Below, one piece after another: positions 25,937 to 55,521 of a stretch of DNA of 60,947 nucleotides. Source of the DNA: Patescibacteria group bacterium. Its GTDB lineage: Bacteria; Patescibacteriota; Minisyncoccia; Sungbacterales; HO2-52-23. The notes under the pieces were generated by a model. That model saw nothing but the letters and a program-made list of their open reading frames with translations. It made no database searches and had not been told where the DNA came from. The stretch covers positions 1-60,947 of the forward strand of contig JBBTVI010000027.1 in the NCBI GenBank assembly GCA_038063315.1, read 5' to 3'. The translations under genes and the position numbers were made by a program. How positions within the stretch are numbered: the first letter of the stretch is position 1; each line of letters starts with the position of its first letter.

Positions 25937-26019
25937 CTGTCATTCCCGCGCAGGCGGGAATCCAGGTTTTTGTCTGACAATAGAACTGAACCTGGACCCC
26001 CGCCTTCGCGGGGGTGACA
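25937..26019. repeat. Family C element
   Basis: Same termini and internal hairpins as the 7620 copy. The central spacer differs. Confidence 0.9.
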
Positions 26020-32805: not shown

Positions 32806-33048
32806 ATGTCAACGGTCAAACTGTCCCAAAAATATCAAATGGTCGTGCCAAAGGAGATACGAAAAAAAATGCGGCTGAGCGCCGGCGTTCGTGTGTCGTT
32901 ATATCCGATTGATGAAGACAGGGCGCTTTTGGTCAAACATCCGAAAGATCCTGTGCGGGCGCTCAAGGGTCTTGGCAAGGAAATATGGAAGTCGCTGGGC
33001 GGGGTGGATGCGTATATACGGAATGAGCGCGATTCATGGAAGGCGTAA
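32806..33048 (+). CDS. AbrB/MazE/SpoVT-type antitoxin (VapB-like)
   Basis: 80 aa. KLSQKYQMVVPKEIRKKMRL is a swapped-hairpin motif. Overlaps the PIN gene by 13 nt. Confidence 0.7.
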   Translation: MSTVKLSQKYQMVVPKEIRKKMRLSAGVRVSLYPIDEDRALLVKHPKDPVRALKGLGKEIWKSLGGVDAYIRNERDSWKA

Positions 33049-33443
33049 TCGGCATAGACAGTACGGTGTTTATGTATCTTCTCGCCGAGGATAGACGCTA
33101 TTTGGCGCGCGTGGAACGGCTTTTGTCCGACGTGCGGGACGGCAAAATCAACGGGATCTTTTCATGCATCGGGTTGATTGAACTCCTGACGGGTCCGAAA
33201 AAACGCGGACAGTATGATATTGCATCGCGGTATCGCGAGATCATCGGGCAATTTCCCCATCTTTCCATCCGCGGGCTCAATGAGCGCATTGTGGATCTTG
33301 CCTCCACTCTCCGCGCGGAGTATGGTTTGCGGACGCCGGATGCGATTCACATTGCAACGGCAATTGACGGGGGCGCGATTGCGTTTGTCACCAATGACAG
33401 GCGGCTTAAAAAAGTGAAGGAAATACGGATTGATTTGCTGTAA
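33036..33443 (+). CDS. vapC: PIN-domain ribonuclease toxin VapC
   Basis: 135 aa. VIGIDSTVFMY (first acidic residue), ELLTG, PDAIHIATAI, FVTND. Confidence 0.8.
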   Translation: MEGVIGIDSTVFMYLLAEDRRYLARVERLLSDVRDGKINGIFSCIGLIELLTGPKKRGQYDIASRYREIIGQFPHLSIRGLNERIVDLASTLRAEYGLRTPDAIHIATAIDGGAIAFVTNDRRLKKVKEIRIDLL

Positions 33444-33491
33444 GAAATCTTGCGGGCCTCAGACGGAAAAACCGTTCTTTTGAAAACGCAT

Positions 33492-33573
33492 GGTGGGTTC
33501 GCCTAATGGTAGGGCATCGGTCTTGAAAACCGACGGGCGAAAGCCCTTGCAGGTTCGAGTCCTGCACCCACCG
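33492..33573 (+). tRNA. tRNA-Ser (anticodon UGA)
   Basis: Hand-folded. Acceptor stem GGTGGGT/ACCCACC, 3-bp D stem GCC/GGC, anticodon stem TCGGT/ACCGA with loop CTTGAAA, long variable arm CGGGCGAAAGCCCTT, T arm GCAGG-TTCGAGT-CCTGC, discriminator G. No encoded CCA. Confidence 0.9.
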
Positions 33574-33761
33574 CACTATTTCCTACCAGTCGTTTGTAAC
33601 CCCTCACCGCTCAAGGGAGAATGGCTTGGACTGCGACAACCGAGCGAGTGTGGGAAGGAAGTTCCCACGATTCATGGTTTCCACCTTGGGAGCTGGACAC
33701 CCTCGCCTTTAGGCGAGGCCTTTCAGGTCAATAACTCCCGTGTTAGCATGATTCAATAAAA

Positions 33762-33932
33762 TTGCAGGAGGAATTCCCGGAACTGCGGAAACGGTACTGG
33801 GGACAGCATTTCTGGGCGCGCGGCTACTTCTGTGTGTCATCGGGTAATGTCACGGACGAAGCGATTCGAGAGTACCTTGCCGGACATGCGGATAAACATG
33901 CTCATGAGATTACCGTTGAGGGACAACTTTAG
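33762..33932 (+). pseudogene. C-terminal fragment of an IS200/IS605-family Y1 transposase (tnpA relic)
   Basis: Translates to LQEEFPELRKRYWGQHFWARGYFCVSSGNVTDEAIREYLAGH..., the conserved C-terminal Tyr helix region of TnpA. The HUH half is absent, with an in-frame stop just upstream. Flanked by similar YCGCCTTTARGCGR hairpins at about 33706-33724 and 33958-33978. Confidence 0.7.
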
Positions 33933-34202
33933 AGGACTTTCAGTCCTTATTCCAATCTATCGCCTTTAAGCGATAGTGGTTGAAGGACAGGAGTATAGTA
34001 ATTGCAATGCTCTATATAGGAGCAAACGCCTGAGCTTTTTGCTGGACCGTAAGATGGACAACGACACAGCCGGGAGGCCTGTTTCGCCTCCAATCCAGCT
34101 GTTGTCCATCGCCCGCCATTGTTCCTTTTAGCTCTTTCTTTCCAATAACAAGCGCCCGCCTCCTTGATGGTTGCGGGCACCTCCAAATTCAATCTTTTTT
34201 CG

Positions 34203-34231
34203 GCCTATGCACATTGCATAGGCGTTTTTTT
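34203..34231 (+). terminator. Plus-strand intrinsic terminator abutting the pheT stop codon
   Basis: GCCTATGCA-CAT-TGCATAGGC perfect 9-bp stem followed by G and T7 on the plus strand. On the minus strand the stem is followed by CGAAAAAAG, so it does not look like the pheT terminator. Confidence 0.6.
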
Positions 34232-34232
34232 A

Positions 34233-38152: not shown

Positions 38153-39124
38153 TCATAGAGATTGCGGCGGCTTCTTTAGAGATGGCCGATCCGGATAGCG
38201 TTCCGGGTCAATCGTGCGTCCGAAACACGCGCGGCCGGCGCCGTGTTCCCAATTATCCTCTGTGGCACCGTAAGGACCGTATGGCCGGACCGCCGGGACT
38301 GCTTTTCCCGTTACCGAGCGCTTACTGTCCGTCGCAAATGTCGCACAAAGCTCGAAAGATACTGGCGTTAAAACGCGGTACTCATACGGCGTTTCCGTCT
38401 TCGGATCCGTCGGCGGCGTAAATCCAGAGATAGAGTTCCGTAAATCAGTCGGTTCTGTCGGCAAATCGCCTTTGGTCATCCAATAATTGATGATCTCGTT
38501 TTGAATCGTCTGAAGATCATTGATCCGCCGCTCATCAAAACGGTGCTCCCTCTGCGCTGCCGGACTTCCGACAATGAAAAATCCGGAGGCGATCCCCGCA
38601 AATGCCACAAAGCCGATGATCCAGGCCGCAAGACGTGGAAGGGACGAGCGCGCCTCCGGCGTACGCCGGATGTCCCAAAGGAAATATCCGAAAACCGCTG
38701 CCGCAACCGCAAGCACGCTTGCGGTTTTGATGAAAAACTTGATCGTGAGCTCCCCGCCCCAAAAATTATAGATAAGCGTGATCAAATCAACGATCATCGT
38801 CACCGCCGCGGCAAAAATCGTAAAATAGACGAGCCACTTCCGGATCTTTAGTTCACGCTTCGCCGGGGCCTTTCTGAAGTCCTTTTCCATCACCGACGCC
38901 AGAAAAAGAAAGACGGGCAGCGTGACCATGAGCGCGGACCCGGCCCACCGGATGCGCTCGCCGATCTCGCCGTAATAAAAATCAAGCGCGTCCGGAAAAA
39001 GCATATTCGCGTACTGGAAAAGGAGCGCGAGAAAACTCACGACGCTGACATAGAGCGCCGCGATCATCAAAAGATGCAGGAAAACGTCTTTCGGCGTTGT
39101 TTTATGAAGCGTTGATGTGACCAT
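38153..39124 (-). CDS. DUF5671-like polytopic membrane protein with a pseudopilin-like C-terminal globular region
   Basis: 323 aa with about 6 TMs. N-terminus PKDVFLHLLMIAALYVSVVSFLAL resembles DUF5671. The C-terminus INDLQTIQNEIINYWMTKGDLPT...PPTDPKTETPYEY resembles GspG-type pilin heads. Confidence 0.45.
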   Translation of the reverse strand: MVTSTLHKTTPKDVFLHLLMIAALYVSVVSFLALLFQYANMLFPDALDFYYGEIGERIRWAGSALMVTLPVFLFLASVMEKDFRKAPAKRELKIRKWLVYFTIFAAAVTMIVDLITLIYNFWGGELTIKFFIKTASVLAVAAAVFGYFLWDIRRTPEARSSLPRLAAWIIGFVAFAGIASGFFIVGSPAAQREHRFDERRINDLQTIQNEIINYWMTKGDLPTEPTDLRNSISGFTPPTDPKTETPYEYRVLTPVSFELCATFATDSKRSVTGKAVPAVRPYGPYGATEDNWEHGAGRACFGRTIDPERYPDRPSLKKPPQSL

Positions 39125-39164: not shown

Positions 39165-39321
39165 ATAACCCTCACAGCCTCACCAACGCCGCGCTATTAC
39201 ATGCGTCATTGCGAGGAGTCCTGCTGCAGGACGACGAAGCAATCCAGCAGAAATACTGGATTGCCGCGCTCCCCCTCGACAGACTCGGGGTCGCTCGCAA
39301 TGACAGCTGTGAGGGCTTACC
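39165..39321. repeat. Family A element with extended ends
   Basis: ATAACCCTCACAGCC-TCACCAACGCCGCGCTATTACATGC-GTCATTGCGAG ... CTCGCAATGACAGCTGTGAGGGCTTAC. Confidence 0.85.
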
Positions 39322-44191: not shown

Positions 44192-44277
44192 GTCATTGCG
44201 CGGAGTCAGACAACAAAACAACCCAGAAGCCCTGGATTGCCGCGCGCCCCCTCGCAGCTCGGGTCGCTCGCAATGAC
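44192..44277. repeat. Family A element (degenerate left end)
   Basis: GTCATTGCGCGGAGTCAGACAACAAAACAACCC ... GGATTGCCGCGCGCCCCCTCGCAGCTCGGGTCGCTCGCAATGAC. Confidence 0.8.
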
Positions 44278-44300
44278 GGATGGAGGGTTTTTAACAGCTT

Positions 44301-45920: not shown

Positions 45921-46048
45921 AATTCTCTCCTCCCATCCCCTGATCGGAGTTTTTTCAAAAACCATTAAACGACCACACCAATACGTAGCAAACCCACACG
46001 GCATTGTCAAACATTGAATCACCCAAAGATTTCCTCTACTGTGAATGC

Positions 46049-46744
46049 ATGACAGTAAAACCAACATTCACCACCAACGCTCTCTACCACCTGTACAACA
46101 GAGGCGTCGAAAAACGCCCGATTTTCCTTGACGACGGCGACCATTTCCGCTTTATCCACGGCCTCTACGAGTTCAACGATACAGCCACCGCGTCGAACCT
46201 TTTCTACAAAAAAGACGCCCTGCGCTCTTACGAAGTTAAGCTTCGTAAGAGGGAATTACTGGTCGAAATTCTCGCCTTTTGTTTGATGTCGAATCATTTC
46301 CATCTCTTCGTCCGTCAACGCCGCGAGTTGGGCATTACACAGTTTATGCACAAATTAGGAACCGGATATACAAATTACTTTAATAAAAAATATGAAAGAG
46401 TCGGCGGACTTTTTCAAGGCACCTTTCGCGCTAAGTACATCGAAAGCGACCGTCACTTTCTCTATCTTCCGCACTACATCCATCTCAACCCGTTGGATTT
46501 TATCGCACCGGAATGGCGTGAAAAACGCATCCGAAACAAAAATCAGGCGTTGCGATTCCTGGATAACTATCGCTGGTCCAGCTATCGCGACCATACGGGC
46601 CGTGAAAATTTTCCGTTCGTCATCGCGGGAAACGCCTTTCGCGAGTTATACACAACTCCGCAGAAATACCGACAATCCCTCGAACAATGGATTGCGGAAT
46701 TGCACAAAAATATCCGTGACATGGGCGAGATAATAATTGACTAA
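46049..46744 (+). CDS. REP-associated tyrosine transposase (RAYT; IS200/IS605-like Y1 HUH enzyme)
   Basis: YHLYNRGVEKRPIFLDDGDHFRF, the HUH motif in LMSNHFHLFV, GTFRAKYIESDRHFLYL and YIHLNPL (catalytic Tyr region). Family E REP hairpins lie immediately downstream and inside the gene. An alternative start lies at 46004. Confidence 0.8.
   Translation: MTVKPTFTTNALYHLYNRGVEKRPIFLDDGDHFRFIHGLYEFNDTATASNLFYKKDALRSYEVKLRKRELLVEILAFCLMSNHFHLFVRQRRELGITQFMHKLGTGYTNYFNKKYERVGGLFQGTFRAKYIESDRHFLYLPHYIHLNPLDFIAPEWREKRIRNKNQALRFLDNYRWSSYRDHTGRENFPFVIAGNAFRELYTTPQKYRQSLEQWIAELHKNIRDMGEIIID
46227..46249. repeat. Family E REP hairpin inside the RAYT coding sequence
   Basis: CTTACGAAG-TTAAG-CTTCGTAAG (9-bp arms, 5-nt loop). 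Encodes SYEVKLRKR in frame. Confidence 0.9.
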
Positions 46745-46748
46745 CAAA

Positions 46749-46771
46749 CTTACGAAGTTAAGCTTCGTAAG
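46749..46771. repeat. Family E REP hairpin, 5 nt downstream of the RAYT stop
   Basis: Identical 23-mer CTTACGAAGTTAAGCTTCGTAAG. Confidence 0.9.
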
Positions 46772-46789
46772 TTTTAATTTTGAGGAAAT

Positions 46790-48535
46790 ATGCGGTCTTT
46801 CAGACTTACGAAGTTAAGCTTCGTAATAATGTCGGTGGTGTTAATAATCCTCGCGTATCCGCCGTCCACGGCGTGGCTGCGCTGGCTTATATTTATCGCG
46901 CTCGTGCCGTTGATACGCTTTTTAGATCATGCTGAAACAAAAAAGCGGGCGTTTTGGGGCCTGTTTCTTTTTTCGTTTCTTTTTCTCGGGTGGAATATCC
47001 GATGGTTTTTCTCGGTATTACCGGCTGACTGGGCTGGCATTGAAAACCCCGTTGCCGGAGCAGCGCTCGTCGGTATTATCTGGCTCCTCACGACAATCGT
47101 CCTATCTCTCCCAATGGCCGCAGTCGGGACACTCTATGCGACGATTCAAACAAAGCGCGCCCAACAACACATCACAAAGCCCCTGCTATTCCTTCTGCCG
47201 TCATTGTGGATCCTCGGCGAGTACTTACGCGCGTGGCTTTTCAGCGTTTTCTGGGTCGGACCGGGGACTCTTCTCGGGCCGCACTGGACATTCGGATTTC
47301 TCGGATATGACCTGACGAATTTCCCACTCCTCCTTCAATCATCAAAACTTGTCGGCGTCTATGGCGCCGGATTTCTGCTTATCCTTGCCAATGTGTGCGC
47401 CGCTCGAATAATCGCGACGCGCGGGCTACACATTCATCGGCGACTTACGTTTACGAGGTTTCACCTCGTAAGATTCTCAAATATTGCTATCGTTTGCGCT
47501 ATCGTGACGGCGTTGTTATTCTACGGTGCGCGACAACTTAAATCGGATCGTTCCCCGCCCGGTGAGATAAAAAAAATCGTCCTCCTCCAAACCAACGCCT
47601 ACCATTACGCCTTTCACGACGCGGCCGCCTTCGAACAATTTATCCGCGACGAACTGAACCTCCTGCGCCGGGCCGCCTATCAAAAACCGGACATCGTGAT
47701 TCTCCCCGAAGGATCGCGCTTGACGCTCAGATTCGGCGAACGCACTCCGGCTATTCTCCAAGACATCTTCGGAACAGAGCGCTCGATCATCATCGTTGAC
47801 AGCGCGCGTCTCAGCCAGACCGGGCCATCCAAAGAGCGGACATTCATCTATGACACGCGCGCGGGCCTCATCGGCATCAGCGACAAAACACTCACAATTC
47901 CGGGTGGGGAATATTTGCCGACGGTTCTAACGACGGCTGCGCGCTTCGCCGGGCAAAAAAAATGGCTGGATCGCTTCGCCCACCTTCGGCATATCATCCC
48001 CGGCGAATATAGTCCGCACGCCGCGCTTGACCCGCGCCGCCAGCCGCTTGGCATTCAACTCTGCTCCGCGGTTCTTGCGCCTCATCTTTGGCGGGATCCC
48101 GTGAAAAACGCGAGCGCGCAGCTGCTCGTCAACGCCGCGAGCCAGGGGCTTTTCAAGGGATCGGCGTTCCGCGATCAAGCGCTCGCGTGGCTCCGTTTTT
48201 TTGCGGCCTCCAACGATCGGTGGCTTGCCCAGGCGGCCAACAGCGGATACTCATATATTATTGACAACAACGGCCAAGTCCGCGCCCGCACCGACACTCT
48301 CGGTCTTCAGACAATTGCCGGAATTGTTGAATACCGCGCGACAAAAACGCCTTACGTCCGCTTCGGCGATTGGCCGCTCATTGCCGCCATCATTGTGCTT
48401 GTCTTGACCATTGTATCCGGCCGGCCAATTACGATTAAAATAAACCGCGAAATAAAACCCAATAGCGGCGGACACCCGCACACGCCGCCGGAAAACGCAG
48501 GACGGTTTGAAGCTGCGTCAGACGAGCCATGTTGA
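46790..48535 (+). CDS. lnt: Apolipoprotein N-acyltransferase-like protein (Lnt paralogue 1)
   Basis: 581 aa. N-terminal polytopic domain plus a C-terminal CN-hydrolase domain with DIVILPEG (Glu), SDKTLTIPGGEYLP (Lys) and GIQLCSAV (Cys). GAGG lies 8 nt upstream of the ATG. Confidence 0.75.
   Translation: MRSFRLTKLSFVIMSVVLIILAYPPSTAWLRWLIFIALVPLIRFLDHAETKKRAFWGLFLFSFLFLGWNIRWFFSVLPADWAGIENPVAGAALVGIIWLLTTIVLSLPMAAVGTLYATIQTKRAQQHITKPLLFLLPSLWILGEYLRAWLFSVFWVGPGTLLGPHWTFGFLGYDLTNFPLLLQSSKLVGVYGAGFLLILANVCAARIIATRGLHIHRRLTFTRFHLVRFSNIAIVCAIVTALLFYGARQLKSDRSPPGEIKKIVLLQTNAYHYAFHDAAAFEQFIRDELNLLRRAAYQKPDIVILPEGSRLTLRFGERTPAILQDIFGTERSIIIVDSARLSQTGPSKERTFIYDTRAGLIGISDKTLTIPGGEYLPTVLTTAARFAGQKKWLDRFAHLRHIIPGEYSPHAALDPRRQPLGIQLCSAVLAPHLWRDPVKNASAQLLVNAASQGLFKGSAFRDQALAWLRFFAASNDRWLAQAANSGYSYIIDNNGQVRARTDTLGLQTIAGIVEYRATKTPYVRFGDWPLIAAIIVLVLTIVSGRPITIKINREIKPNSGGHPHTPPENAGRFEAASDEPC
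46805..46826. repeat. Family E REP hairpin inside the first codons of lnt paralogue 1
   Basis: CTTACGAAGTTAAGCTTCGTAA. Encodes LTKLSFV. Confidence 0.9.
47451..47472. repeat. Family E-like REP hairpin inside lnt paralogue 1
   Basis: TTACGAGGT-TTC-ACCTCGTAA(G), preceded by a partial copy CTTACGT. Encodes TFTRFHLVRF. Confidence 0.8.
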
Positions 48536-49430
48536 ATCCCGAGACCCATCGAGCGTCAAAAACAAAAAGATGGAACAAAAACAACCCGATCGTCAAATCA
48601 GTCAGGTTGAGCAGCAGCAATATTCCGAAGTGAAAACACGTCATCGCGAGCCACACGAGACGCCGCGTTTTACGCCACAAACAAAGCGGCGCAAACCCCG
48701 CCTCCAATGCTAAAACCCCCCATGTGAAAATTTGGAATATCCACACGGGAAATTGCAGTATCCAATCAACGATCCATGAATCCCGCCCAGCACCGCTTGC
48801 AAGGATCTGAAAAAACGCGGTCCCGTCTATCCAACTCGGGCTGCCCATTTTCTGAAATCCGCTGATGGTATAACCGAGCGCCAAAACAATCCACGCGCCA
48901 TAAAAAATAATCCCGGGCATTTTCCAATCGGCACGCGCGCGTTGCCGCCGCGATCCAATGGACAGCGGCTCGCCTGTCGGAATGATCGTTGAGGCGAGCA
49001 ACAACCACCCCACGTAGTGAACGCTGATGTCGCCCGCGAGAATATTTGCATTCAATAAACACGCCCAGCCATACCATAAGAAAAGGGATGCGGCGCGGCG
49101 CAGAACGCCGCACGAGTAAAAAACCGATAACGCCGCCAACACAACAATAAACAAAGTAACGCCGCCGGAGGAATCAGCAAGGGACAGCACGTTGGGAAAA
49201 ATGCCGTTGGAAAAGGCGTAACGCGCTTCCGCCATCATTCCTGTCCGTCCAAACACTTCCGGCGCATAAGGGAGGAGCCGCACAAAATGGACCGCAAGGT
49301 AGACCCCGAAAACAATACGCCAAATCGCAAACTGCGTCGGCGAGTAAAACACGGCGGCTCTATCTGCCAAGGCGTGCACAAAGGCCCACATGCTCCGTAC
49401 CCGTATTAAAATGCGACGCAAATGTGTCAT
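48435..49430 (-). CDS. HTTM-domain (vitamin-K-dependent gamma-carboxylase-like / SdpB-like) polytopic membrane protein
   Basis: Start taken at 49430 (MTHLRR), giving an ATGA overlap with the upstream stop. FAIWRIVFGVYLAVHFVRLLPYAPEVFG... followed by multiple TMs matches my recollection of the HTTM/SdpB N-terminal pattern. Not verified by search. Confidence 0.5.
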   Translation of the reverse strand: MTHLRRILIRVRSMWAFVHALADRAAVFYSPTQFAIWRIVFGVYLAVHFVRLLPYAPEVFGRTGMMAEARYAFSNGIFPNVLSLADSSGGVTLFIVVLAALSVFYSCGVLRRAASLFLWYGWACLLNANILAGDISVHYVGWLLLASTIIPTGEPLSIGSRRQRARADWKMPGIIFYGAWIVLALGYTISGFQKMGSPSWIDGTAFFQILASGAGRDSWIVDWILQFPVWIFQIFTWGVLALEAGFAPLCLWRKTRRLVWLAMTCFHFGILLLLNLTDLTIGLFLFHLFVFDARWVSGFNMARLTQLQTVLRFPAACAGVRRYWVLFRGLF

Positions 49431-49975
49431 TGGCGTTTTCCGCAATCAATAGCGATGGTCCAGACCATATCACGATTCCGCAAGTGATCGCCCGCCCGCG
49501 CGATTCTGGATTCCCCCGTGACGATTGCCTGCTTGACGGATGTCGTGATGCCGATTTCCGACAGAATGCTTGCTTGGCATATTCCGTAATGCAAAACCGC
49601 GCGCATCATCTCCCGTATCGGCTGCCCCTGCGCCGTCGTCGGCCAATACGTCAATGTGTTGGTATACGGATTGCGTCGCGTCATGGGGCCCCGCAGGCGC
49701 GAAGAAGTTTCGGAATCCAGGGCCCGCCGGATTATCTGGCCCTCCTCCGTCATAACCCTCATCTCCACCGAAAACGCGAACGTGTCAATACCGTTGATAT
49801 GCGTAAAAACAATCGGCACGGGAGATGCCACGGTCATGGCGCCCGCGCGCTCGAGAGCTGCCCATCCGGTTGCGTATCCGGCCATCTGTAGCAAACCGAT
49901 CGCCACCACGATAGACGCCGAGCCAGCGCGAACCGCTTTTCTGAAAGCCGCTTTGTCAAAATATGCGAGATGCAT
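49427..49975 (-). CDS. Hypothetical protein in the SdpA position (immediately upstream of and translationally coupled to the HTTM gene)
   Basis: 182-aa ORF with one N-terminal hydrophobic segment (ASIVVAIGLLQMAGYA). The call rests on position only. Confidence 0.4.
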   Translation of the reverse strand: MHLAYFDKAAFRKAVRAGSASIVVAIGLLQMAGYATGWAALERAGAMTVASPVPIVFTHINGIDTFAFSVEMRVMTEEGQIIRRALDSETSSRLRGPMTRRNPYTNTLTYWPTTAQGQPIREMMRAVLHYGICQASILSEIGITTSVKQAIVTGESRIARAGDHLRNRDMVWTIAIDCGKRQ

Positions 49976-49983
49976 GATAGAAA

Positions 49984-51144
49984 TCAGTCCGGCGCAAAGT
50001 AAAATCCCAACATGCCCATGGACGCGCCTAGAAGCGCCTTACCGGACGGATTCGAATATATAGCGGCAATAGAGATAATATCGCCCGGGCGAATGCGCCG
50101 CCGCGTCCACAACTGTTGTGTCTCCCACTCCCACGGAGGGGACGCGCGCTTCTTGGTTATGAGTTGGGCAATGCGCCTGCCATTAAGAGACACGATCAGC
50201 TTTTCTCCGCCCTCCCATCCATGGAGGTGCCCACCGAATCCGAGCAGCGCGCCGGGACGCCGGAATGTGTACTCGGCCGTGCTTACGCCATTCACTCGCG
50301 CTCCGCGAAATTCCGCGTGGTCGCTGCGGGCCGGTATTGCAAAGGTGTCGTCCAGAACAAGACCGATATTCTCCACGCCGTTCGGCGCGCGCAAACCTTC
50401 CATATCCTGCGCATATGCGCATGGCGTATCGTCAATCCGTAATCGCTGATACTCAACCCTCCGTGAGCGCCGTCCGGTTGCGGCGCGCTCCACCCTCATA
50501 CGGAGCGCCGCCGACACATCGCGATAAAAACCGCCTGGACCGTACGGGGGGAAAGGATTATGAACAATGGCATGAAGCATCAACGGAGTGCCGGATGCAA
50601 CGAACATCCCATAGGGCTCGGGAAAAATGACTGGCGCGTAGTTGGCGTCCAACGCGCCGGTAATAAGTTCCTGATAAAAAATAGGGCAGACGCCATCCGT
50701 CTCATCAAGACGCTGAAGCGTTGAGTGATGCAAAACAACCAAAGGGGCATTTCGCACGTCCCATCGAAATTCCGTGATCCAGAAATCCTCCGTTGCCACA
50801 TACGCGTCCGACCCGAGAAAAACACCGTGTCCGGCATCGTGCAGTTTGTTCAGCGAGGGTTCGTGTGCATGCGGCGGCAACTGAGCAATATGCATGGTCT
50901 CCAGCACAAAAGCCGCCCCTCGATCCGCGCGAGACGCGCTTTCGCTCCAGCGATATAAAGAAACGGCGGCGACCGCGATGAGTAAAACGACCGCCGCGGC
51001 AATACGGCGCGTTTTTGATTGTATCGGAAAAAGAGTAAACACGATGCGTAGTAATCTCTCACAGCCGTCATTGCTTCGTCGTCTAACTCCTCGCAATGAC
51101 GATTTATCGTAAAATTTGTAAGCGGGTGTAAAAGGTACGGACAA
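49984..51144 (-). CDS. Membrane-anchored PHM/DBH-like (copper type II ascorbate-dependent monooxygenase-like) protein, paralogue 1
   Basis: Motifs in 386-aa ORF numbering: HH at 139-140 (VVLHHSTLQRLD...C), H191/H195 (LMLHAIVHNP), H306-x-H308 (GGHLHGWEGGE), PGDIISIAAIYSN and M376/M378 (GASMGMLGFYFAP). The first ~30 codons are a family A repeat, so the true start may be the GTG at 51042. Confidence 0.45.
   Translation of the reverse strand: MSVPFTPAYKFYDKSSLRGVRRRSNDGCERLLRIVFTLFPIQSKTRRIAAAVVLLIAVAAVSLYRWSESASRADRGAAFVLETMHIAQLPPHAHEPSLNKLHDAGHGVFLGSDAYVATEDFWITEFRWDVRNAPLVVLHHSTLQRLDETDGVCPIFYQELITGALDANYAPVIFPEPYGMFVASGTPLMLHAIVHNPFPPYGPGGFYRDVSAALRMRVERAATGRRSRRVEYQRLRIDDTPCAYAQDMEGLRAPNGVENIGLVLDDTFAIPARSDHAEFRGARVNGVSTAEYTFRRPGALLGFGGHLHGWEGGEKLIVSLNGRRIAQLITKKRASPPWEWETQQLWTRRRIRPGDIISIAAIYSNPSGKALLGASMGMLGFYFAPD
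51051..51100. repeat. Family A mini-element (internally deleted)
   Basis: GTAATCTCTCACAGCCGTCATTGC-TTCGTCGTCTAACTCCTCGCAATGAC. Lies inside the long-ORF N-terminus of PHM-like paralogue 1. Confidence 0.8.
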
Positions 51145-51149
51145 TCCCC

Positions 51150-52163
51150 TTACTTTGTGTCCGGCGCAAAATAAAACCCGATTTGTCCCATGGCTGAGTC
51201 CACCAATGGCGCGGCCTGCGGATTGGAATACGTTGCGTCAATGGACAAAACATCACCCTTCGCCACGCGCCGAAACAATTTTATATGCGGCGTCTCCCAC
51301 GACCATAGATTATCAGCGGTCTGACGCGAAACAAGCGATGCGAGAATGTCGCCATTCAAAAAAACTCCCACGGACTCACCGCCTTCCCAGGCATGGATAT
51401 GTCCTCCAACCCCGAATAACATGCCAGATGACATAAAGGTATACTCGGCGGTGTGAAACGGTCCGTTCCGCGCCTGCGCCGCTGTGAAGCGCGCGTGCGC
51501 GCTGCGGGCCGGAATTACGAATGTTTCGACTGTTACCGGATCAGCGCACGGCGAATCATCAAGACGCAGACGCCTGTACTCCAGCCGCCTATGCCGCCGA
51601 GAAACCGTCGCCCGTTCAACGTCCATCACTAACCGAACGGAAACATTCTCATAAATCCCGCCCGGGCCGTGCGGCGAAACAGGATTGTGCGCCATGACAT
51701 TGACCTCAAGCGGCGTCCCTTTCGGCAGAAAAATCCCGTAGGGAGAGGGAAAAACAACCGAAGTATGTATTGTATCAATACTGCCGGTAAAAAGCTCTTC
51801 CCACGATCTCGGACACACAGGATCCATCCGATCTATTCTCTGAAAAACAGCATGATGCACAATATGCGGGGGGGCATTCTGCACCTCCCAACGGAGCCCC
51901 GTGACCCAAAGATCGTCTCCCGCCGCCACTACCGGCGACAAAAGATATACCCCATGCCCTGCGCTGAAGATTTTATCCTTGAGCGGCGTATGCGGATGCG
52001 AAGGAAAACTCGCCAACGCATTGGTCTCAATTACAAAGCGCCGCGATCCACCGACCATCCCGGCCGCATCGCGAGAGCCGCCACGCATGAACAACCACCC
52101 GAAAAACGCGACAACCAACAATCCAAGCGCGCCCCATATGTACAAAGGCCGTCTCATTTCCAT
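51150..52163 (-). CDS. Membrane-anchored PHM/DBH-like protein, paralogue 2
   Basis: Same motif set: IVHHAVFQRID..C, VMAHNP, GGHIHAWEGGE, KGDVLSIDATYSN, SAMGQIGFYFAP. N-terminal TM. Start at 52163 or 52157, because the upstream codons are a family B repeat. Confidence 0.45.
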   Translation of the reverse strand: MEMRRPLYIWGALGLLVVAFFGWLFMRGGSRDAAGMVGGSRRFVIETNALASFPSHPHTPLKDKIFSAGHGVYLLSPVVAAGDDLWVTGLRWEVQNAPPHIVHHAVFQRIDRMDPVCPRSWEELFTGSIDTIHTSVVFPSPYGIFLPKGTPLEVNVMAHNPVSPHGPGGIYENVSVRLVMDVERATVSRRHRRLEYRRLRLDDSPCADPVTVETFVIPARSAHARFTAAQARNGPFHTAEYTFMSSGMLFGVGGHIHAWEGGESVGVFLNGDILASLVSRQTADNLWSWETPHIKLFRRVAKGDVLSIDATYSNPQAAPLVDSAMGQIGFYFAPDTK

Positions 52164-52193
52164 AATACATAATACATGCCCCATAATTCATCC
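52159..52193. repeat. Family B half-site between PHM-like paralogues 3 and 2
   Basis: TTCCATAATACATAATACATGCCCCATAATTCATCC. Confidence 0.8.
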
Positions 52194-53251
52194 TATTCAT
52201 CCCACGCGGCATAAAATCCGACCATTCCCATTGCCGAACCCGTCAAATCTTCGGCGAACAAATTGGAGTATGTCGCGGAAATCGAGAGAACATCGCCTGC
52301 CTCCAAACGTACCCGACGCCTGATCCAGTAAAAGGGAGTTTCCCATAGCCATAGCCAATCTCCTTTCTGCCTGCTGTTTAATGAAAATAACGCGCGCCCG
52401 TTAAGCAGCAGCGCCAATTCTTCTCCGCCTTCCCAGCCGTGGGTATGCCCGCCAAAACCCACAAGAGTCCCTGGCCGTTGAACGACATACGCGCCGGATT
52501 CTGCGTGCCCGTCCTCGGGCCGCGCGGCCGCCATTGTCCAATGGCGCGCGCCCGCCGGAATACTAAAAACCTCTGCCGGCGCGACATTTTTCCGTAATGG
52601 GTATACACACGGTGTCCCACTCAACCGCAAACGATTATACTCCAATGCGCGAAAACGACGCGACAGCGTTGCCGCCTCCACTGTCAAATTCAAACGCGCG
52701 GCAACATTATCGTACGTCCCGCCGGATCCGTACGGAGGAAGAGGGTTATGCAACATCGCGCTAATGCCGATGGGGGTTCCGGCCGGGAGAAAAATCCCGA
52801 ACGGCTCCGGAAATTCAATATGCCGCGGCGCGTCAATGGCCGTTGTCGCAATTTCCTGAAACCACGACGCGGGACAAAGCGGATCCGGCCGGTCAAGACG
52901 CTGAACCAGCGCATGATGGATCACCTCCTGCGGAGCATTCTCCGCGCGCCATTCCAGCGCGGTCACCCACAGCGGCGTGTCCGTCACCCATATATCGGAC
53001 ACCGCAACAACACCGTGTCCCTGCGCGACCACCGTATCGGTACTGGGATTATGCGGGTGTGGTACAAGCTGCAAAATCGGCCGCGTCTTGATGGTGAACT
53101 GGCGCGACACCGCCGACCCATGGGTTGCATCGGAAACAATGCGCCATGCAATGAAACCAAAAACCAAGACGCAAGATGCGCTGGCAATGATAATCGTACG
53201 CGCCGTTGCAATGTGACGCAGATGACCAAAAAATTGCGCCCTTGTGATCAT
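52193..53251 (-). CDS. Membrane-anchored PHM/DBH-like protein, paralogue 3
   Basis: Same motif set: VIHHALVQRLD..C, AMLHNP, GGHTHGWEGGE, AGDVLSISATYSN, SAMGMVGFYAAW. ORF trimmed to the ATG at 53251, because the upstream 45 codons are a family C repeat. Confidence 0.45.
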   Translation of the reverse strand: MITRAQFFGHLRHIATARTIIIASASCVLVFGFIAWRIVSDATHGSAVSRQFTIKTRPILQLVPHPHNPSTDTVVAQGHGVVAVSDIWVTDTPLWVTALEWRAENAPQEVIHHALVQRLDRPDPLCPASWFQEIATTAIDAPRHIEFPEPFGIFLPAGTPIGISAMLHNPLPPYGSGGTYDNVAARLNLTVEAATLSRRFRALEYNRLRLSGTPCVYPLRKNVAPAEVFSIPAGARHWTMAAARPEDGHAESGAYVVQRPGTLVGFGGHTHGWEGGEELALLLNGRALFSLNSRQKGDWLWLWETPFYWIRRRVRLEAGDVLSISATYSNLFAEDLTGSAMGMVGFYAAWDE

Positions 53252-53292
53252 AAAGTTTCTCAATAACGTTAAGACAAAATGTCTCTTTTTTT

Positions 53293-53374
53293 CTGTCATT
53301 CCCGCGCAGGCGGGAATCCAGATTTCTCTCTTTGAGAAGGCAAAACCTGGACCCCCGCCTTCGCGGGGGTGACA
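53293..53374. repeat. Family C element between lnt paralogue 2 and PHM-like paralogue 3
   Basis: CTGTCATTCCCGCGCAGGCGGGAATCCAGATTT...AACCTGGACCCCCGCCTTCGCGGGGGTGACA. Confidence 0.9.
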
Positions 53375-53385
53375 AAAGCAATGCA

Positions 53386-55236
53386 TTATTCGCCAACCTC
53401 CTGATGCTCCATCGTCTCCTCATTCCCCAACACACCGAAAAGTCTTCGTTGCGTCCTCCTGCGCCCGTACAAAAATAATAGCGCCACCAACACTCCGGCA
53501 AGCGCGACAGGCCAGTCGCCGAAACGAACGTAAGGGGTTTTTGTTGTCCGGTAGTCAACGTCCCCCGTCAGAATCGTATCGCCCAGTGCGTTAGTCCGTG
53601 CGCGGATAGCGCCCGTCTCGTCAATGATGTAGGAATATCCGCCGTTTGCGGCCTGCACAACCCAACGATCATTCATCGCCGCGTACGATTGCAGCATGGC
53701 GCGGGATTGCGCGTGAAATGCCGGATGATTCAACAGGCCGACGCTCGCGGCATTGATCAAAACCTGACTGCGATTCGCCGTTTCCCGCCAGAGAACCGGG
53801 GAAAAAATCGTGGTGCAGAGTTGCACGCCTTCAGCCAAACGCCTGGGGTCCAGAGACGCGAACGGCGCAACCTCTCCTTTGTAAATCCGGCGATACCAAT
53901 TAAAATGCCGGATCACGTTGGTCATCCCGAACAATTTAAGAACGCCATGAACAGTATAAGCCAAATATTCCCCATTAGGCACTAAAAAAACCTTGTCGCT
54001 CACCGCCACCAATCCTTTCTCTGTATCATAGAAAAAAAGCCGCGCCTTGGACGGCCTCTGAAGGTCGAGCCGCCCGCTATCAATCACTAACGCCGGGTTA
54101 TTCGCATGGAAAATCCGCGCAAGAACATCCGGCGTCTCTCCGCGAAAGCGGAGCGTGAGATCCGACGCTTCGGGCAAAACAACCACGTCGGGCCGGACTG
54201 TCGCAGTGTTCTTTAGTAATACCAATTCTCTATCAATGTAATTTTTGTACACGGCCGGATCAATGGTGCGGTAAATCAATTCATTGGTTTGCACCAGCGT
54301 AAATCGCTTTTTTTGAGCAACATCCCGACCGCGTCCTGCAAACTGCGCGCGACCGTACAGTAGTAAAACAACAATAACGGCGCCGACGGATAAGGTTCTT
54401 ATGAAGCTTAACTTCGTAAGTAATTGAAAACGCCTCTCTCGTTCGTCATTGCGAGCGACCCCGAGTTTGGCGAGGGGGAGCGCGGCAATCCATCTTTTTC
54501 TGGATTGCGGAGCCTGTCCCGAGCGAAGCGAGGGATCTAACTCCTCGCAATGACTCTTGAGGCGGCTTCTAAGGTGCATAAAAATCCCCCTCAATCCCCC
54601 TTTTTCAAAGGGGGAAGCATTAAAAAATTCCGCGATCGCGACATTCACGAGTACAATAAGAGCGCTTGCGCCGTAGACGCCGAATAGTTTTGTGGACTGC
54701 AAAAGCAATGGGAAATCCGCCAGGGCATAGCCCAGAAATCCGGGAGCCCAATGCGGGCCGAGCAGCGACCCCGGGCCAATCCACGCCAACGAATAGAACC
54801 ACGCCCGGCCATACTCGCCAAGAATCCAGAAAAAAGGAAACACAAATAAACGCGTACGTGCCGGGAAAAAAGTAGCTCCGTATCCCGCTAGTCCCATTGG
54901 CAGGGCGAAAATAGCTGCTGTCGCGCACCAATACAAAAAAATAATCAAAAGCCCGGTGGACGGACTCGTCACCCCGGCCCATTTTGCGGATGAGGCGGCA
55001 AAAAACCACCGAAGCGTCCATGCCGCAAAAGCGAATTCCATGAGAAACACGCCCCAAAACACCTGTTTGCGGCTTGCCCGCCGGAGAAAAAAACAAAAAG
55101 GAACAAGAGCAATCCACAGGAACCAGCGCGATACGGCCGGGGGATAGGCCGCAATGAGCAGTACCACAGAAATGAGCGGGGCTAAATTGCCCAACAGCCG
55201 TCGGCCCTTTATCGCTTCAAAAAAACGCATCTTCAT
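53386..55236 (-). CDS. lnt: Apolipoprotein N-acyltransferase-like protein (Lnt paralogue 2) carrying a ~74-aa repeat-derived in-frame insertion
   Basis: 616 aa, collinear with paralogue 1 (YPPAVSRW, LRWFF, WILGEYGRAW, VVVLPEA, SDKVFLVPNGEYLA, GVQLCTT, FGDWP). The segment SPFEKGGLRGIF...SHCEEL...WIAALPLAKLGVARND...LLTKLSFI is encoded by repeat families F, A and E. Confidence 0.75.
   Translation of the reverse strand: MKMRFFEAIKGRRLLGNLAPLISVVLLIAAYPPAVSRWFLWIALVPFCFFLRRASRKQVFWGVFLMEFAFAAWTLRWFFAASSAKWAGVTSPSTGLLIIFLYWCATAAIFALPMGLAGYGATFFPARTRLFVFPFFWILGEYGRAWFYSLAWIGPGSLLGPHWAPGFLGYALADFPLLLQSTKLFGVYGASALIVLVNVAIAEFFNASPFEKGGLRGIFMHLRSRLKSHCEELDPSLRSGQAPQSRKRWIAALPLAKLGVARNDERERRFQLLTKLSFIRTLSVGAVIVVLLLYGRAQFAGRGRDVAQKKRFTLVQTNELIYRTIDPAVYKNYIDRELVLLKNTATVRPDVVVLPEASDLTLRFRGETPDVLARIFHANNPALVIDSGRLDLQRPSKARLFFYDTEKGLVAVSDKVFLVPNGEYLAYTVHGVLKLFGMTNVIRHFNWYRRIYKGEVAPFASLDPRRLAEGVQLCTTIFSPVLWRETANRSQVLINAASVGLLNHPAFHAQSRAMLQSYAAMNDRWVVQAANGGYSYIIDETGAIRARTNALGDTILTGDVDYRTTKTPYVRFGDWPVALAGVLVALLFLYGRRRTQRRLFGVLGNEETMEHQEVGE
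54398..54420. repeat. Family E REP hairpin (one mismatch) inside lnt paralogue 2
   Basis: CTTATGAAGCTTAACTTCGTAAG, in inverted orientation relative to the 46749 copy. Encodes LLTKLSFI on the minus strand. Confidence 0.85.
54445..54554. repeat. Family A element inside the lnt paralogue 2 coding sequence
   Basis: GTCATTGCGAGCGACCCCGAGTTTGGCGAGGGGGAGCGCGGCAATCC ... GGATTGCGGAGCC...CTCGCAATGAC, read in frame by the 616-aa ORF. Confidence 0.85.
54580..54617. repeat. Family F hairpin repeat inside lnt paralogue 2
   Basis: AAAAATCCCCCTCAATCCCCCTTTTTCAAAGGGGGAAG, nearly identical to the 2391 copy. Encodes SPFEKGGLRGIF on the minus strand. Confidence 0.85.
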
Positions 55237-55287: not shown

Positions 55288-55521
55288 GTCATTGCGAGGA
55301 GTGCAGCGGAACGATCCCTCCCCTTGCTCGGAACAATCTCCGCAATCCAGGGGGAGTCGTCATTGCGAGGAGTCCTGCTGCAGGACGACGAAGCAATCCA
55401 GTATTTCTGCCTTTACGGATTGTTTCGTCGCTGCTGCTCCTCGCGAGGACGGTCGAAATGGATTGCCGCGCGCCCCCTCATCAAACTCGGGGTCGCTCGC
55501 AATGACGGCTGTAAGGGGTTA
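55288..55521. repeat. Family A compound element
   Basis: Four half-units. The 3' 165 nt are nearly identical to window positions 1-163. Confidence 0.85.

Follow-up and report, generated by a model that had tools for sequence, protein, structure and literature searches.

A CPR bacterium is found to carry three copies of an unannotated relative of the copper enzymes that amidate peptides and hydroxylate dopamine in animals, in one gene run with an Lnt-type acyltransferase, a membrane protein of the HTTM type and its small partner. The best explanation of the observed gene arrangements is that these four families are genetically coupled in CPR bacteria. All four are found together in another, distant genome (locus L027), where two of them are fused, which suggests a system for cell-envelope modification that is so far undescribed. 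The original prediction, based on a single stretch of DNA, is partly supported by our analysis. The complete reading, in which a membrane-embedded set of enzymes from the four families serves one envelope-anchored substrate, has in our judgment a slightly better than even chance of being correct.

Gene order and the two Lnt genes

The window analyzed here is the whole stretch of 60,947 nucleotides from a Patescibacteria group bacterium (contig JBBTVI010000027.1, positions 1–60,947 of the forward strand, assembly GCA_038063315.1). All seven predicted open reading frames (ORFs) are present in the proposed order, and the layout is accurate to the base. The minus-strand run starts with lnt2 (53386–55236, 616 aa) and continues with the PHM-like paralogues PHM3 (52193–53251, long ORF to 53386, 352 aa from the trimmed start), PHM2 (51150–52184, 344 aa), and PHM1 (49984–51042, long ORF to 51144, 352 aa from the trimmed start). 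These are followed by the gene of the small partner, a 182-aa protein with a predicted N-terminal hydrophobic segment (49427–49975), and by the gene of the polytopic HTTM-domain protein (48435–49430, long ORF to 49445). The second Lnt-family paralogue, lnt1 (46790–48535, plus strand, 581 aa), converges on the HTTM gene and overlaps it by 101 nt, as expected; from our reading of the alignment and the family consensus, the overlap seems to touch only the non-conserved C-terminal tails of both proteins. A gene for a Y1 transposase adjoins lnt1.

Base-by-base inspection verified the ATGA stop/start overlap of the small-partner and HTTM genes (49430–49427), the 8-nt gaps between PHM1 and the small-partner gene (49976–49983) and between PHM3 and PHM2 (52185–52192), and the single nucleotide, 53386, by which lnt2 and the long PHM3 ORF overlap. 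Dispersed repeats make up the N-terminal extensions of both long ORFs, PHM3 and PHM1, so that the likely starts of these genes are at 53251 and about 51042, respectively; the gene-caller product P0002, which is PHM1, also begins at about 51042. The trimmed starts leave a gap of 134 nt between lnt2 and PHM3 (53252–53385), filled, as had been noticed, by a repeat that has copies at 7612–7705 and 25934–26019 with 86% identity, and a repeat-containing gap of 107 nt between PHM2 and PHM1 (51043–51149). Therefore the claimed near absence of intergenic space holds at only three of the five junctions.

Judged by profiles and catalytic residues, both flanking genes encode true members of the Lnt acyltransferase family in which the catalytic triad is intact, in agreement with the initial family assignment. 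The two proteins are 41% identical (BLASTP 1e-143), far beyond chance. Pfam LNT_N is matched by lnt1 at 1.6e-16 and by lnt2 at 5e-13, the latter also matching CN_hydrolase at 3.5e-7, and the family profile gives a full-length match to E. coli Lnt (5n6h; 3.5e-33), with E267, K335, E343, and C387 aligned. The triad of lnt1 is formed by E307, K366, and C425, the catalytic cysteine being aligned with that of P. aeruginosa Lnt (5n6m); the catalytic E/K/E/C residues of lnt2 are invariant, and the triad is invariant across ten CPR Lnt-like proteins. The TIGR00546 scores of lnt1 (124.9 bits) and lnt2 (75 bits) are under the cut-off of 132.9 bits. In addition, lnt2 contains an in-frame repeat insertion of some 50–60 codons (54442–54624), missing from lnt1 in the pairwise alignment and situated in the loop that joins the LNT_N membrane domain to the nitrilase-like one; its repeat unit of about 50 nt occurs 17 more times in the window, with 90–96% identity.

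The PHM-like family

The three PHM-like proteins are true paralogues, with 100 invariant columns and an identity far beyond chance (47% for PHM1/PHM2 and PHM2/PHM3, 42% for PHM1/PHM3). They have no Pfam match above the threshold and no NCBIfam match; weak Pfam matches were observed in other family members, to SURNod19 (12 members), Cu2_monoox_C (4), and Cu2_monooxygen (1), all of the same kind of protein. The proposed similarity to PHM and DBH is supported by structure prediction and by the ligand pattern. The AF2 model of PHM2 (pLDDT 78, pTM 0.74) has a transmembrane helix at residues 5–34, and PHM3 has an N-terminal transmembrane anchor followed by a two-domain beta-sandwich. In a Foldseek search of the PDB with the PHM2 model, the best 28 matches were all PHM or DBH (E 6e-11 to 5e-8, probability 1.00), and the next fold class appeared at about 1e-5 with a TM of about 0.2; PNGase F-II was also among the matches. 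The candidate copper ligands of PHM2 are H110, H111, H166, H262, H264, and M332, and all six positions are retained in the three window paralogues, with PHM-like spacing of the CuH (His-His...His) and CuM (His-x-His...Met) sets. Extended hhalign against the verified sequence of rat PHMcc placed H110/H111 on H107/H108, H262/H264 on H242/H244, and M332 on M314, so that five of the six ligands are in exact register and H166 is off the exact placement on H172; the hhalign probability is only 33–48%, which is weak support for PHM homology at the sequence level. Two conserved cysteines and the N-terminal transmembrane helix would fit a position of the protein outside the cytoplasm. The fold and ligands make O2-dependent C–H hydroxylation the most likely activity of the paralogues, for which we infer copper binding, O2 use, and a reductant.

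The family is small (232 representatives), apparently new, and apparently restricted to CPR, as eight of its nine genome matches bear a CPR name. All six ligands are retained in 85 of 115 members (74%), and a subclade of 18 members lacks the CuM ligands, having N-x-W plus S/A/T instead. This subclade still adjoins Lnt in two loci (L004 and L005), and therefore the link to Lnt cannot depend strictly on monooxygenase chemistry; two of its proteins (P0156 and P0170) are fused to PG_binding_1. An additional H-x-H at positions 63/65, conserved in 85 and 82 of 96 members, respectively, is without a PHM counterpart. Other evidence relates the family to the envelope: there are fusions of the PHM-like domain with PAP2, PG_binding_1, or Sulfatase domains, the Terrybacteria loci have a DAGK-PAP2 gene upstream, and one further locus (L029) has upstream genes for a thioredoxin-like protein and DsbB.

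The HTTM pair and linkage in other loci

The last gene of the run is, by profile comparison, an HTTM protein just under the Pfam cut-off (25.3 bits versus 27.7, E 1.3e-5, profile positions 6–243 of 259), and 25 of 37 relatives match HTTM at E <= 1e-3 (best 5.6e-11), in line with the original assignment. Most of its 237 relatives have a precomputed PF04134 match, and the window protein lacks the DCC1-like domain present in most of them. The closest relatives are DCC1-fused proteins of other bacteria, such as Nitrospinota, Sulfurovum, and Campylobacterales, encoded near FA_hydroxylase and spermine-synthase-like genes, in contexts unrelated to Lnt or PHM. No sequence-level match to GGCX was obtained with the family profile. 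The small partner is 83% identical to P0275 and aligns with the proteins whose genes precede HTTM genes in L025 (34%), L026 (25%), and L027 (23%), with 16 invariant columns; its profile recovers only P0275 and these relatives, and there is no significant Pfam or NCBIfam match (best E at least 0.005, far below the cut-offs). These alignments place it in a family that has no annotation and whose genes lie ahead of HTTM genes and overlap them. Its predicted structure has a pLDDT of 34. Identification of the two proteins as SdpA and SdpB is not supported, as neither matches the SdpA, SdpB, or DUF5819 models of Pfam and NCBIfam. In a recent preprint (10.64898/2026.08.19.745780), a DUF5819 protein and an HTTM-DCC1 protein are predicted to mimic together the whole GGCX, the small protein serving as a "clamp". 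This analogous pair and the overlapping gene pairs in L025, L026, and L027 suggest that the small partner and the HTTM protein form one unit.

Of 19 informative non-redundant contexts, nine have an Lnt gene next to the PHM-like gene and three more have one within 5 kb (12 of 19); the other seven have no Lnt nearby. We estimate that a gene present in one or two copies among about 1000 genes of a genome would be adjacent by chance in well under 1% of cases. In L027, a minus-strand Lnt gene is separated by 55 bp from a plus-strand small-partner gene, which overlaps by 4 nt a gene encoding an HTTM::PHM-like fusion. The HTTM part of this fusion is only 33% identical to the window HTTM protein, and therefore the association is not a recent copy. 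Lnt proximity and this fusion are independent evidence for the predicted joint action of the families and support a functional link. On the other hand, HTTM genes lie beside PHM-like genes in only two of 23 non-redundant contexts, the window included, the HTTM and small-partner genes are missing from 26 of the 27 other PHM-like loci fetched (L024, a fetched locus without a PHM-like ORF, is outside the 27), and the full six-gene layout was found in the window only. As anticipated, no description of the Lnt/PHM-like/HTTM combination was found in literature searches, each of which joined only some of the terms.

A putative envelope modification system and its alternatives

The enzyme set would probably act at the outer face of the membrane. 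Judging from homology, the two Lnt-type acyltransferases would load an acyl chain taken from a phospholipid onto the catalytic cysteine as a thioester and then transfer it to an amine. The three membrane-anchored PHM/DBH-fold paralogues would most likely hydroxylate C–H bonds in an O2-dependent manner, and the HTTM protein with its small partner may constitute a split enzyme resembling GGCX, the vitamin-K-dependent carboxylase. We infer that all of them share one substrate, most likely envelope-anchored: the likeliest candidates would be the N-terminal region of lipoproteins or another amine-bearing lipid or wall-linked peptide, acylated by Lnt and hydroxylated by the PHM-like proteins. Triplication of the latter suggests several related substrates. 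The HTTM pair could perform a second, O2/quinol-dependent modification or, alternatively, could deliver reducing equivalents from membrane quinol to the copper sites. The second role would resemble that of ascorbate and cytochrome b561, which supply reducing equivalents to eukaryotic PHM and DBH. Quinone biosynthesis is usually absent from CPR bacteria, so that a dependence of the HTTM enzyme on quinol would be puzzling.

The same genes might be mere neighbors without a shared substrate, namely a housekeeping Lnt, duplicated once, a separate PHM-like envelope family, and an acquired GGCX-like pair. This would agree with the occurrence of the HTTM pair in only one of the 27 other PHM-like loci, with the DCC1-fused HTTM relatives in other lineages and unrelated contexts, with the 107–134-nt gaps filled by mobile repeats, and with the transposase gene beside lnt1. 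We consider it unlikely in view of the natural HTTM::PHM-like fusion, with its small partner and divergent Lnt gene in a distant genome, the frequency of Lnt proximity compared with chance, and the single strand and close junctions (two 8-nt gaps and the ATGA overlap) of the window genes. A closer connection with Lnt is assumed if the PHM-like proteins are copper- or substrate-binding accessory subunits of Lnt, for instance for envelope copper handling or for holding lipoprotein or wall substrates, with the fold as a binding scaffold. PNGase F is a copper-free reuse of the PHM fold, and the lnt gene of E. coli originally came to light as cutE, a locus of copper sensitivity; the N-x-W subclade, which keeps its Lnt neighbors and PG_binding_1 fusions without a CuM site, the extra H-x-H, and the PNGase F-II match fit this role as well. 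However, it hardly explains why 74% of the members and all window paralogues retain the ligands of both copper sites in full and at PHM-like distances, and PHM/DBH lead PNGase F in structural similarity by four or more orders of magnitude, so that we find an accessory role quite unlikely.

Maturation of a secreted peptide or toxin (RiPP) in the manner of SdpABC, with the small partner and HTTM protein processing a precursor, PHM-like proteins hydroxylating or amidating it, and Lnt acylating it, seems very improbable. PHM indeed amidates peptides, and the small gene overlapping the HTTM gene resembles sdpA-sdpB. Processing of SdpC into the SDP toxin, an extracytoplasmic step, requires SdpA as well as SdpB (PMC6818787), and MloH is described in the preprint as an HTTM-type carboxylase of natural-product biosynthesis. 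Nevertheless, the SdpA/SdpB label failed in the model searches, the intergenic gaps are dispersed repeats, and the PHM-like fusion partners are envelope and lipid enzymes rather than RiPP machinery. In accordance with the earlier remark that a precursor gene is not evident, inspection of the ORFs of 60 aa or more at 44–58 kb and of 110 aa or more elsewhere in the window, some of which were covered by the Pfam scan, revealed no gene for an SdpC-like protein, a precursor, an immunity protein, or an exporter.

Compared with known systems, the preferred reading of one envelope-directed enzyme set combines familiar parts in a different setting. The window Lnt proteins share with Lnt of the Lgt-Lsp-Lnt pathway the LNT_N membrane and nitrilase-like domains, full-length alignment to the E. 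coli enzyme, and the Glu-Lys-Glu-Cys residues, but both copies score below the NCBIfam equivalog cut-off, the gene is duplicated with a repeat insertion in one copy, and the CPR Lnt gene is repeatedly paired with a PHM-like gene. The PHM-like proteins resemble PHM/PAM and DBH in the two-domain beta-sandwich fold, in the order and spacing of the ligands (His-His...His...His-x-His...Met), and in a membrane-tethered, probably extracytoplasmic or lumenal domain. They differ in an identity of about 12%, the N-terminal transmembrane anchor, the extra H-x-H ahead of the core, the prokaryotic, mostly CPR-named distribution, the loss of the CuM site in one subclade, and the absence of a known ascorbate supply; their genetic partners are Lnt, HTTM, and PAP2, whereas PAL, DOMON, and cytochrome b561 were not found among them. 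As in SdpA/SdpB (YitP/YitO) of B. subtilis, a small protein gene precedes an HTTM protein gene, although no SdpA/SdpB match, SdpC-like substrate, or sdpRI-like immunity genes were seen in the window, and sdpABC and yitPOM as described in PMC6818787 contain no Lnt or PHM-like genes. In contrast to the DUF5819 and HTTM(-DCC1) pairs, the 182-aa protein and its relatives have no DUF5819 match and the window HTTM protein has no DCC1 domain, and fusion or adjacency to PHM-like genes is not mentioned in the passages of 10.64898/2026.08.19.745780 that were consulted. At the same time, the family of the window HTTM protein usually bears a C-terminal DCC1-like domain and, as in the DUF5819/HTTM(-DCC1), GGCX, and MloH group, the gene directly upstream of that for the HTTM membrane protein codes for a small protein whose N terminus has a hydrophobic segment.

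Gene order and flanking acyltransferases

The layout of the gene cluster in the original prediction was confirmed by an ORF table, which reproduced its coordinates. On the minus strand lie the acyltransferase gene lnt2 (53386-55236), the copper-monooxygenase-like paralogues PHM3 (long ORF, 52193-53386), PHM2 (51150-52184), and PHM1 (long ORF, 49984-51144), an ORF for a 182-aa protein (49427-49975), and an HTTM-like ORF (48435-49445); the second acyltransferase gene, lnt1 (46790-48535, plus strand), is convergent to them. Base-by-base reading gave spacings of 8 nt both between PHM3 and PHM2 and between PHM1 and the 182-aa gene, whose 3' end (CGC CAA TGA) is overlapped at the stop codon by the ATG of the HTTM gene at 49430 (ATGA). 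At their N-terminal ends, the long PHM3 and PHM1 ORFs consist of dispersed-repeat copies that also occur elsewhere in the window, and thus the probable starts are 53251 for PHM3 and about 51042 for PHM1, the latter being that of the gene-caller product P0002. With these trimmed starts, gaps of 134 nt and 107 nt remain, both filled by repeats. The three PHM-like proteins are 42-47% identical to one another, with 100 invariant columns. A scan for sigma-70 promoters and terminators was uninformative, the majority of sites falling inside coding sequence, and Rfam and tRNA scans of the window detected two tRNAs only, both far from the cluster.

The proteins encoded by lnt1 and lnt2 are 41% identical, and both contain the LNT_N and CN_hydrolase domains, that is, a polytopic N-terminal and a nitrilase-like C-terminal part. 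In an alignment of these two with eight Lnt-like proteins adjoining PHM-like genes elsewhere, Glu307, Lys366, Glu374, and Cys425 (lnt1 numbering) are invariant in all 10 CPR proteins. The family profile matches E. coli Lnt (5n6h) with E=3.5e-33 over positions 6-494 of 498, and the CPR motifs LPE, K..GEY, and LC align with WPE, NK...GEF, and ICYE of the E. coli enzyme, which we take to carry E267, K335, E343, and C387. The two domains, the catalytic residues, and the full-length profile match bear out the identification of the flanking genes as Lnt, and on these sequence features their family membership can be regarded as secure. The sequences do not establish that the two proteins function as E. 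coli Lnt does; the TIGR00546 scores, 124.9 bits for lnt1 and 75.4 bits for lnt2, are both under the equivalog cut-off of 132.9.

Dispersed repeats occur across the window. A repeat of about 50 nt has 17 other copies with 90-96% identity (e.g., 101-147, 2452-2500, 4285-4365, 5935-5984, 10268-10314, 20039-20087, 39257-39304, 44233-44278, and 55458-55507), and further families have units of about 30 nt and 90 nt. They occupy intergenic gaps and produce spurious N-terminal ORF extensions, as in PHM3 and PHM1; the NusA ORF at 19934 and an ORF at 55324 also have apparent repeat-derived extensions, judged from inspection of their translations only. Motifs of such extensions include SLRGV..DEAIQ and WIAA.PL..LGVARND. 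Within lnt2, an in-frame insertion of about 50-60 codons (54442-54624) consists of dispersed repeat units and lies in the loop joining the membrane and nitrilase-like domains; it introduces no stop codons, leaves the catalytic residues intact, and resembles the in-frame palindromic-element insertions known from Rickettsia. Directly upstream of lnt1, positions 46004-46744 of the plus strand encode a 246-aa protein with an IS200-like Y1 transposase domain (E 2.3e-8), followed immediately by a perfect hairpin with a 13-bp stem (46746-46774). This protein may be a REP-associated tyrosine transposase (RAYT) tied to the repeat families.

Elsewhere in the window, the GC skew changes sign near 34 kb (about 33000-34500), from positive to negative, at the peak of the cumulative skew. 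The switch coincides with a change of the predominant coding strand, adjoins a tRNA-Ser gene (33492-33574), and may be a replication landmark or a simple strand-bias effect. A long run of ORFs at 192-15771 apparently encodes type IV pilus or pseudopilin proteins and assembly ATPases, as judged from N-terminal sequences only (e.g., GFTLIELLVV), and a DUF5671 protein is encoded at 38153-39124 (Pfam E 2.1e-23). Genes of both kinds are usual in CPR genomes.

The PHM-like family

None of the three paralogues has a match in Pfam at E <= 0.1 or in NCBIfam, and a word-index search of 5.8 billion proteins with the PHM-like protein returned only six clusters. Compared with PDB sequences, a profile built from all three gave nothing relevant, its sole match being a chance one to glutamate dehydrogenase (E 0.58). 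An AlphaFold2 model of the 344-aa PHM2, built on a seven-sequence alignment (pLDDT 78, pTM 0.74), comprises a TM helix at the N-terminus (residues 5-34) followed by an all-beta body. In a Foldseek search of PDB, every one of its top 28 matches was to rat PHM or to human DBH (E 6e-11 to 5e-8, probability 1.00), with TM-scores of 0.44-0.60 against PHM chains and lower values where the longer DBH chains set the normalisation. Other folds (capsid jelly-rolls, CBMs, and PNGase F-II) followed from E about 1e-5 with TM-scores of about 0.2-0.3. PHM2 is accordingly modelled as two consecutive beta-sandwich (jelly-roll) domains with the fold of the PHM catalytic core.

The copper ligands were located using as a reference a rat PHM core sequence checked against PDB chains, which fixed the numbering. 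Alignment of a 96-member family alignment to this core by hhalign covered 209 columns over both domains (E 1.8e-4, probability 48%). At the CuH site, H110 and H111 (PHM2 numbering) are in exact register with H107 and H108 of PHM, and at the CuM site H262 and H264 align with H242 and H244, and M332 with M314. H166 ends the strand equivalent to that of H172, an equivalence by position and not by aligned column, as hhalign places a gap there. The complete six-ligand set is present in PHM1, PHM2, and PHM3, and together with the fold match this ligand pattern corroborates their assignment as PHM/DBH-like. The possibility that the PHM-like proteins are themselves lipoproteins and substrates of Lnt was rejected upon inspection of their N-termini, which contain no lipobox; the only N-terminal cysteine among the three is that of PHM3, buried inside the TM helix.

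An exhaustive HMMER scan of 1.84 billion representatives at E<=1e-3 defined a family of 232 proteins. Eight of the nine loci from species-representative genomes carry the names of CPR MAGs (Terrybacteria, Spechtbacterales, Parcubacteria, Saccharibacteria, Paceibacteria, and Paceibacterota) and the ninth, L014, is labelled just 'bacterium'; the family is apparently restricted to CPR. The Saccharibacteria MAGs with family members are those of L009, L011, and L012. Among 96 members, H110 is kept in 94, H111 in 90, H166 in 93, H262 and H264 in 82 each, and M332 in 79, and 85 of 115 members have the complete set. In a lenient Pfam scan of the 96, all matches were sub-threshold: 12 to SURNod19 (best 2e-4), four to Cu2_monoox_C (best 0.0068), and one to Cu2_monooxygen (0.0047). 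N-x-W plus S/A/T replaces the CuM ligands in 18 of the 115. This CuM-less subclade (P0004-P0006, P0156, and P0170; loci L003-L005) retains the CuH histidines, includes some PG_binding_1 fusions, and has two members adjoining Lnt; these may be non-catalytic or single-copper variants.

Two conserved cysteines are specific to the family, as is an additional H-x-H at positions 63/65 ('PHxHxxxD'), kept in 85 and 82 of the 96 members. In PHM2 this motif (window positions about 51990-51998) is situated in a low-confidence linker preceding the PHM core. PHM has nothing equivalent, and the motif could bind a third metal or serve in copper delivery.

The PHM-like domain is fused to PAP2 in P0180, to PG_binding_1 in P0156 and P0170, and to a sulfatase-type domain in P0153, and in the Terrybacteria loci a DAGK-PAP2 fusion gene precedes tandem PHM-like genes. 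Together with the L029 genes described below, these associations suggest the membrane and wall, and not a pathway for soluble peptides, as the setting of the domain. The remaining neighbours (arylsulfotransferase, SLT, PG-binding/TIG, M23/LysM, and GAPDH) showed no recurrent theme. In L029, genes for a thioredoxin-like protein, DsbB, and the PHM-like protein follow one another on one strand (871-2801), with a 19-nt gap before the last; this order could reflect disulfide formation in the PHM-like domain; alternatively, electrons could travel by a membrane quinone/thiol route that parallels the HTTM link. Several lineages have PHM-like genes duplicated in tandem or nearly so (the Terrybacteria loci L001, L002, and L006, as well as L007 and L019), so that paralogue expansion appears to be a family trait and not peculiar to the window. 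In the second copy of L001, the first CuH histidine is replaced by cysteine (LCHAG).

Genetic linkage with Lnt and HTTM

Gene contexts were compared by labelling locus ORFs with profiles built from the window's own proteins. A PHM-like gene or fragment was present in 28 fetched loci, one of which, L024, yielded no PHM-like ORF; recovery used a tight alignment, which biases this set towards members with the H-x-H-x-W-E-G-G motif. Collapsing redundant loci left 19 contexts with an informative flank. A Lnt-like gene is adjacent to the PHM-like gene in nine of them (L004, L005, L007, L008, L012, L021, L023, L027, and L028), lies within 5 kb in three (L010/L017, L011, and L018), and is absent from the fetched region in seven (the Terrybacteria group, L003, L009, L013, L019, L029, and L030). 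For a gene present in one or two copies, this proximity is far above chance.

The HTTM protein of the window, taken from its trimmed start, matches Pfam HTTM (PF05090) over profile positions 6-243 of 259 with E 1.3e-5 and 25.3 bits, just under the cut-off of 27.7. It has 237 relatives at E<=1e-3, and for most of those listed there is a precomputed match to DCC1-like (PF04134), a domain that the window protein lacks. In a sample of 37 relatives picked to include many unfused members, 25 match HTTM at E <= 1e-3 (best 5.6e-11) and 10 match DCC1-like. As its close relatives match the Pfam family, HTTM membership of the window protein is convincing by transitivity at the sequence level, and the near-full-length match agrees with the original assignment. 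The family has an invariant lysine (K181 in P0007); its profile did not find GGCX among PDB sequences at E <= 1.

The 182-aa protein has one close homologue, P0275, 83% identical, and its AlphaFold2 model, built on a two-sequence alignment, had a pLDDT of 34 and was unusable for fold comparison. Small genes of L025 (157 aa) and L026 (169 aa) are located immediately upstream of HTTM genes and overlap their starts as in the window. The 182-aa protein aligns with the partners from L025, L026, and L027 (161 aa) at 34%, 25%, and 23% identity, respectively, with 16 invariant columns, and position and HTTM overlap are conserved across the four loci. This alignment and shared placement put the 182-aa protein in a conserved family of HTTM partners that lacks annotation. 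In L025 (6803-10012, non-CPR) the pair lies beside a fatty-acid hydroxylase gene, and in both L025 and L026 (7504-12813, non-CPR) a spermine-synthase-like gene is found downstream of it; these neighbours may hint at what the family of this HTTM protein natively does.

Apart from L027, no HTTM or small-partner gene was found in the fetched PHM-like loci. In L027 (GCA_016217965.1), P0165 is a natural HTTM::PHM-like fusion: its residues 9-280 are 33% identical to the window HTTM protein (BLASTP 3e-46, phmmer 1e-48), and a TM helix and a PHM-like domain with all ligands kept follow. The small-partner gene overlaps the start of the fusion by 4 nt, and an intact 488-aa Lnt-like gene, which the gene caller had split, is located 55 bp upstream on the opposite strand. 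Thus the four families of the window are all found together again in a distant genome, and this co-occurrence is decisive for their linkage.

Possible functions and related systems

Starting from the observed family memberships, conserved catalytic residues, membrane anchoring, and genetic coupling, we lean slightly towards a functionally coupled envelope-modification system. The envelope interpretation of the original prediction is retained in its family calls and in the functional linkage of the genes (Lnt proximity and L027) but loses its SdpA/SdpB framing, and the function is one that we infer. The enzymes would work on a substrate anchored in the envelope, on the outward-facing side of the membrane. 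The role of Lnt would be to acylate an amine with a chain taken from a phospholipid, and that of the PHM-like paralogues to hydroxylate a C-H bond with two copper sites and O2. PHM itself also oxidises N-acylglycines, and hence an N-acylated product is chemically plausible as a substrate of the PHM-like enzymes. The HTTM pair could perform a further quinol/O2-dependent modification or deliver electrons to the copper sites.

Other explanations were weighed against such a coupled system. The rare co-occurrence of HTTM with PHM-like genes could suit independent modules that merely neighbour one another; set beside the Lnt proximity and the L027 locus, this seems unlikely. It is still less probable that the PHM-like proteins are non-catalytic accessory or copper-binding proteins, given how many members have the complete ligand set; the CuM-less subclade is nevertheless Lnt-linked, and therefore part of the association may be structural, not catalytic. 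The adjacency of a small gene and an HTTM gene had been read as an SdpA/SdpB-like pair. This framing did not hold: SdpA/SdpB models were absent among NCBIfam matches at E <= 0.1, Pfam at E <= 10 gave no SdpA match for the 182-aa protein or its relatives, and among ORFs of at least 60 aa in the 44-58 kb region there was no candidate for an SdpC-like substrate gene, the gaps being dispersed repeats and the gene after HTTM being the convergent lnt1. An Sdp-like peptide maturation system, against which the membrane and wall partners of the PHM-like domain also argue, is very improbable.

In a more specific form of the coupled system, HTTM and its small partner would be a redox module that works with membrane quinol and O2, is physically coupled to the bicopper enzyme of the PHM-like type, and provides it with the electrons that in eukaryotes come from ascorbate and cytochrome b561. 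With Lnt they would make up a hitherto unknown extracytoplasmic machine for the oxidative tailoring of either N-acylated termini of lipoproteins or lipids scavenged from the host in CPR bacteria. HTTM and PHM-like domains are literally fused in L027. To our knowledge, CPR bacteria usually lack quinone synthesis, and Pfam searches of ten further window ORFs found no copper-handling, DsbB/VKOR, or quinone genes. We regard this redox module as a speculative and rather improbable proposal. If it is true, a bacterial PHM-type pathway would for the first time have a defined electron donor, and a lineage usually considered fermentative would carry out O2-dependent chemistry on its envelope.

PHM/DBH-type copper monooxygenases are textbook animal enzymes. 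The present analysis defines a compact prokaryotic PHM-like family (232 representatives, apparently CPR-only), all of which standard annotation misses, and its genetic partners (Lnt, HTTM with the small partner, PAP2, and DsbB) turn a 'hypothetical protein' into a testable hypothesis on the modification of envelope lipoproteins or lipids. CPR bacteria are episymbionts, generally thought to be minimal in redox metabolism and to scavenge host lipids. O2- and copper-dependent envelope tailoring in these organisms, if true, would come as a surprise and might be relevant to the way in which their surface is built or disguised. The HTTM::PHM-like fusion offers a lead both on the role of bacterial HTTM proteins and on the reductant of PHM-type copper sites outside eukaryotes.

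Every component of the cluster belongs to a known superfamily. In the literature searched, we found no characterised prokaryotic relative of the PHM/DBH type and nothing relevant on a prokaryotic PHM-like family or a link between Lnt and CPR; the family, its coupling to Lnt, and the HTTM::PHM-like fusion were not found there and are invisible to Pfam and NCBIfam. The idea of a small partner plus HTTM already has a published analogue: in a 2026 preprint, pairs of DUF5819 and HTTM-DCC1 proteins are predicted to reconstitute the GGCX architecture, with the small protein as a clamp, and MloH is noted as a fused version (10.64898/2026.08.19.745780). The window differs from these pairs in that its HTTM protein is not of the DCC1 type and the 182-aa protein does not match DUF5819 in Pfam at E <= 10, nor do P0275 or the L025 and L026 partners. 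Of the systems described, the DUF5819 and HTTM-DCC1 pairs are nonetheless the closest analogue of the small partner and HTTM protein of the window.
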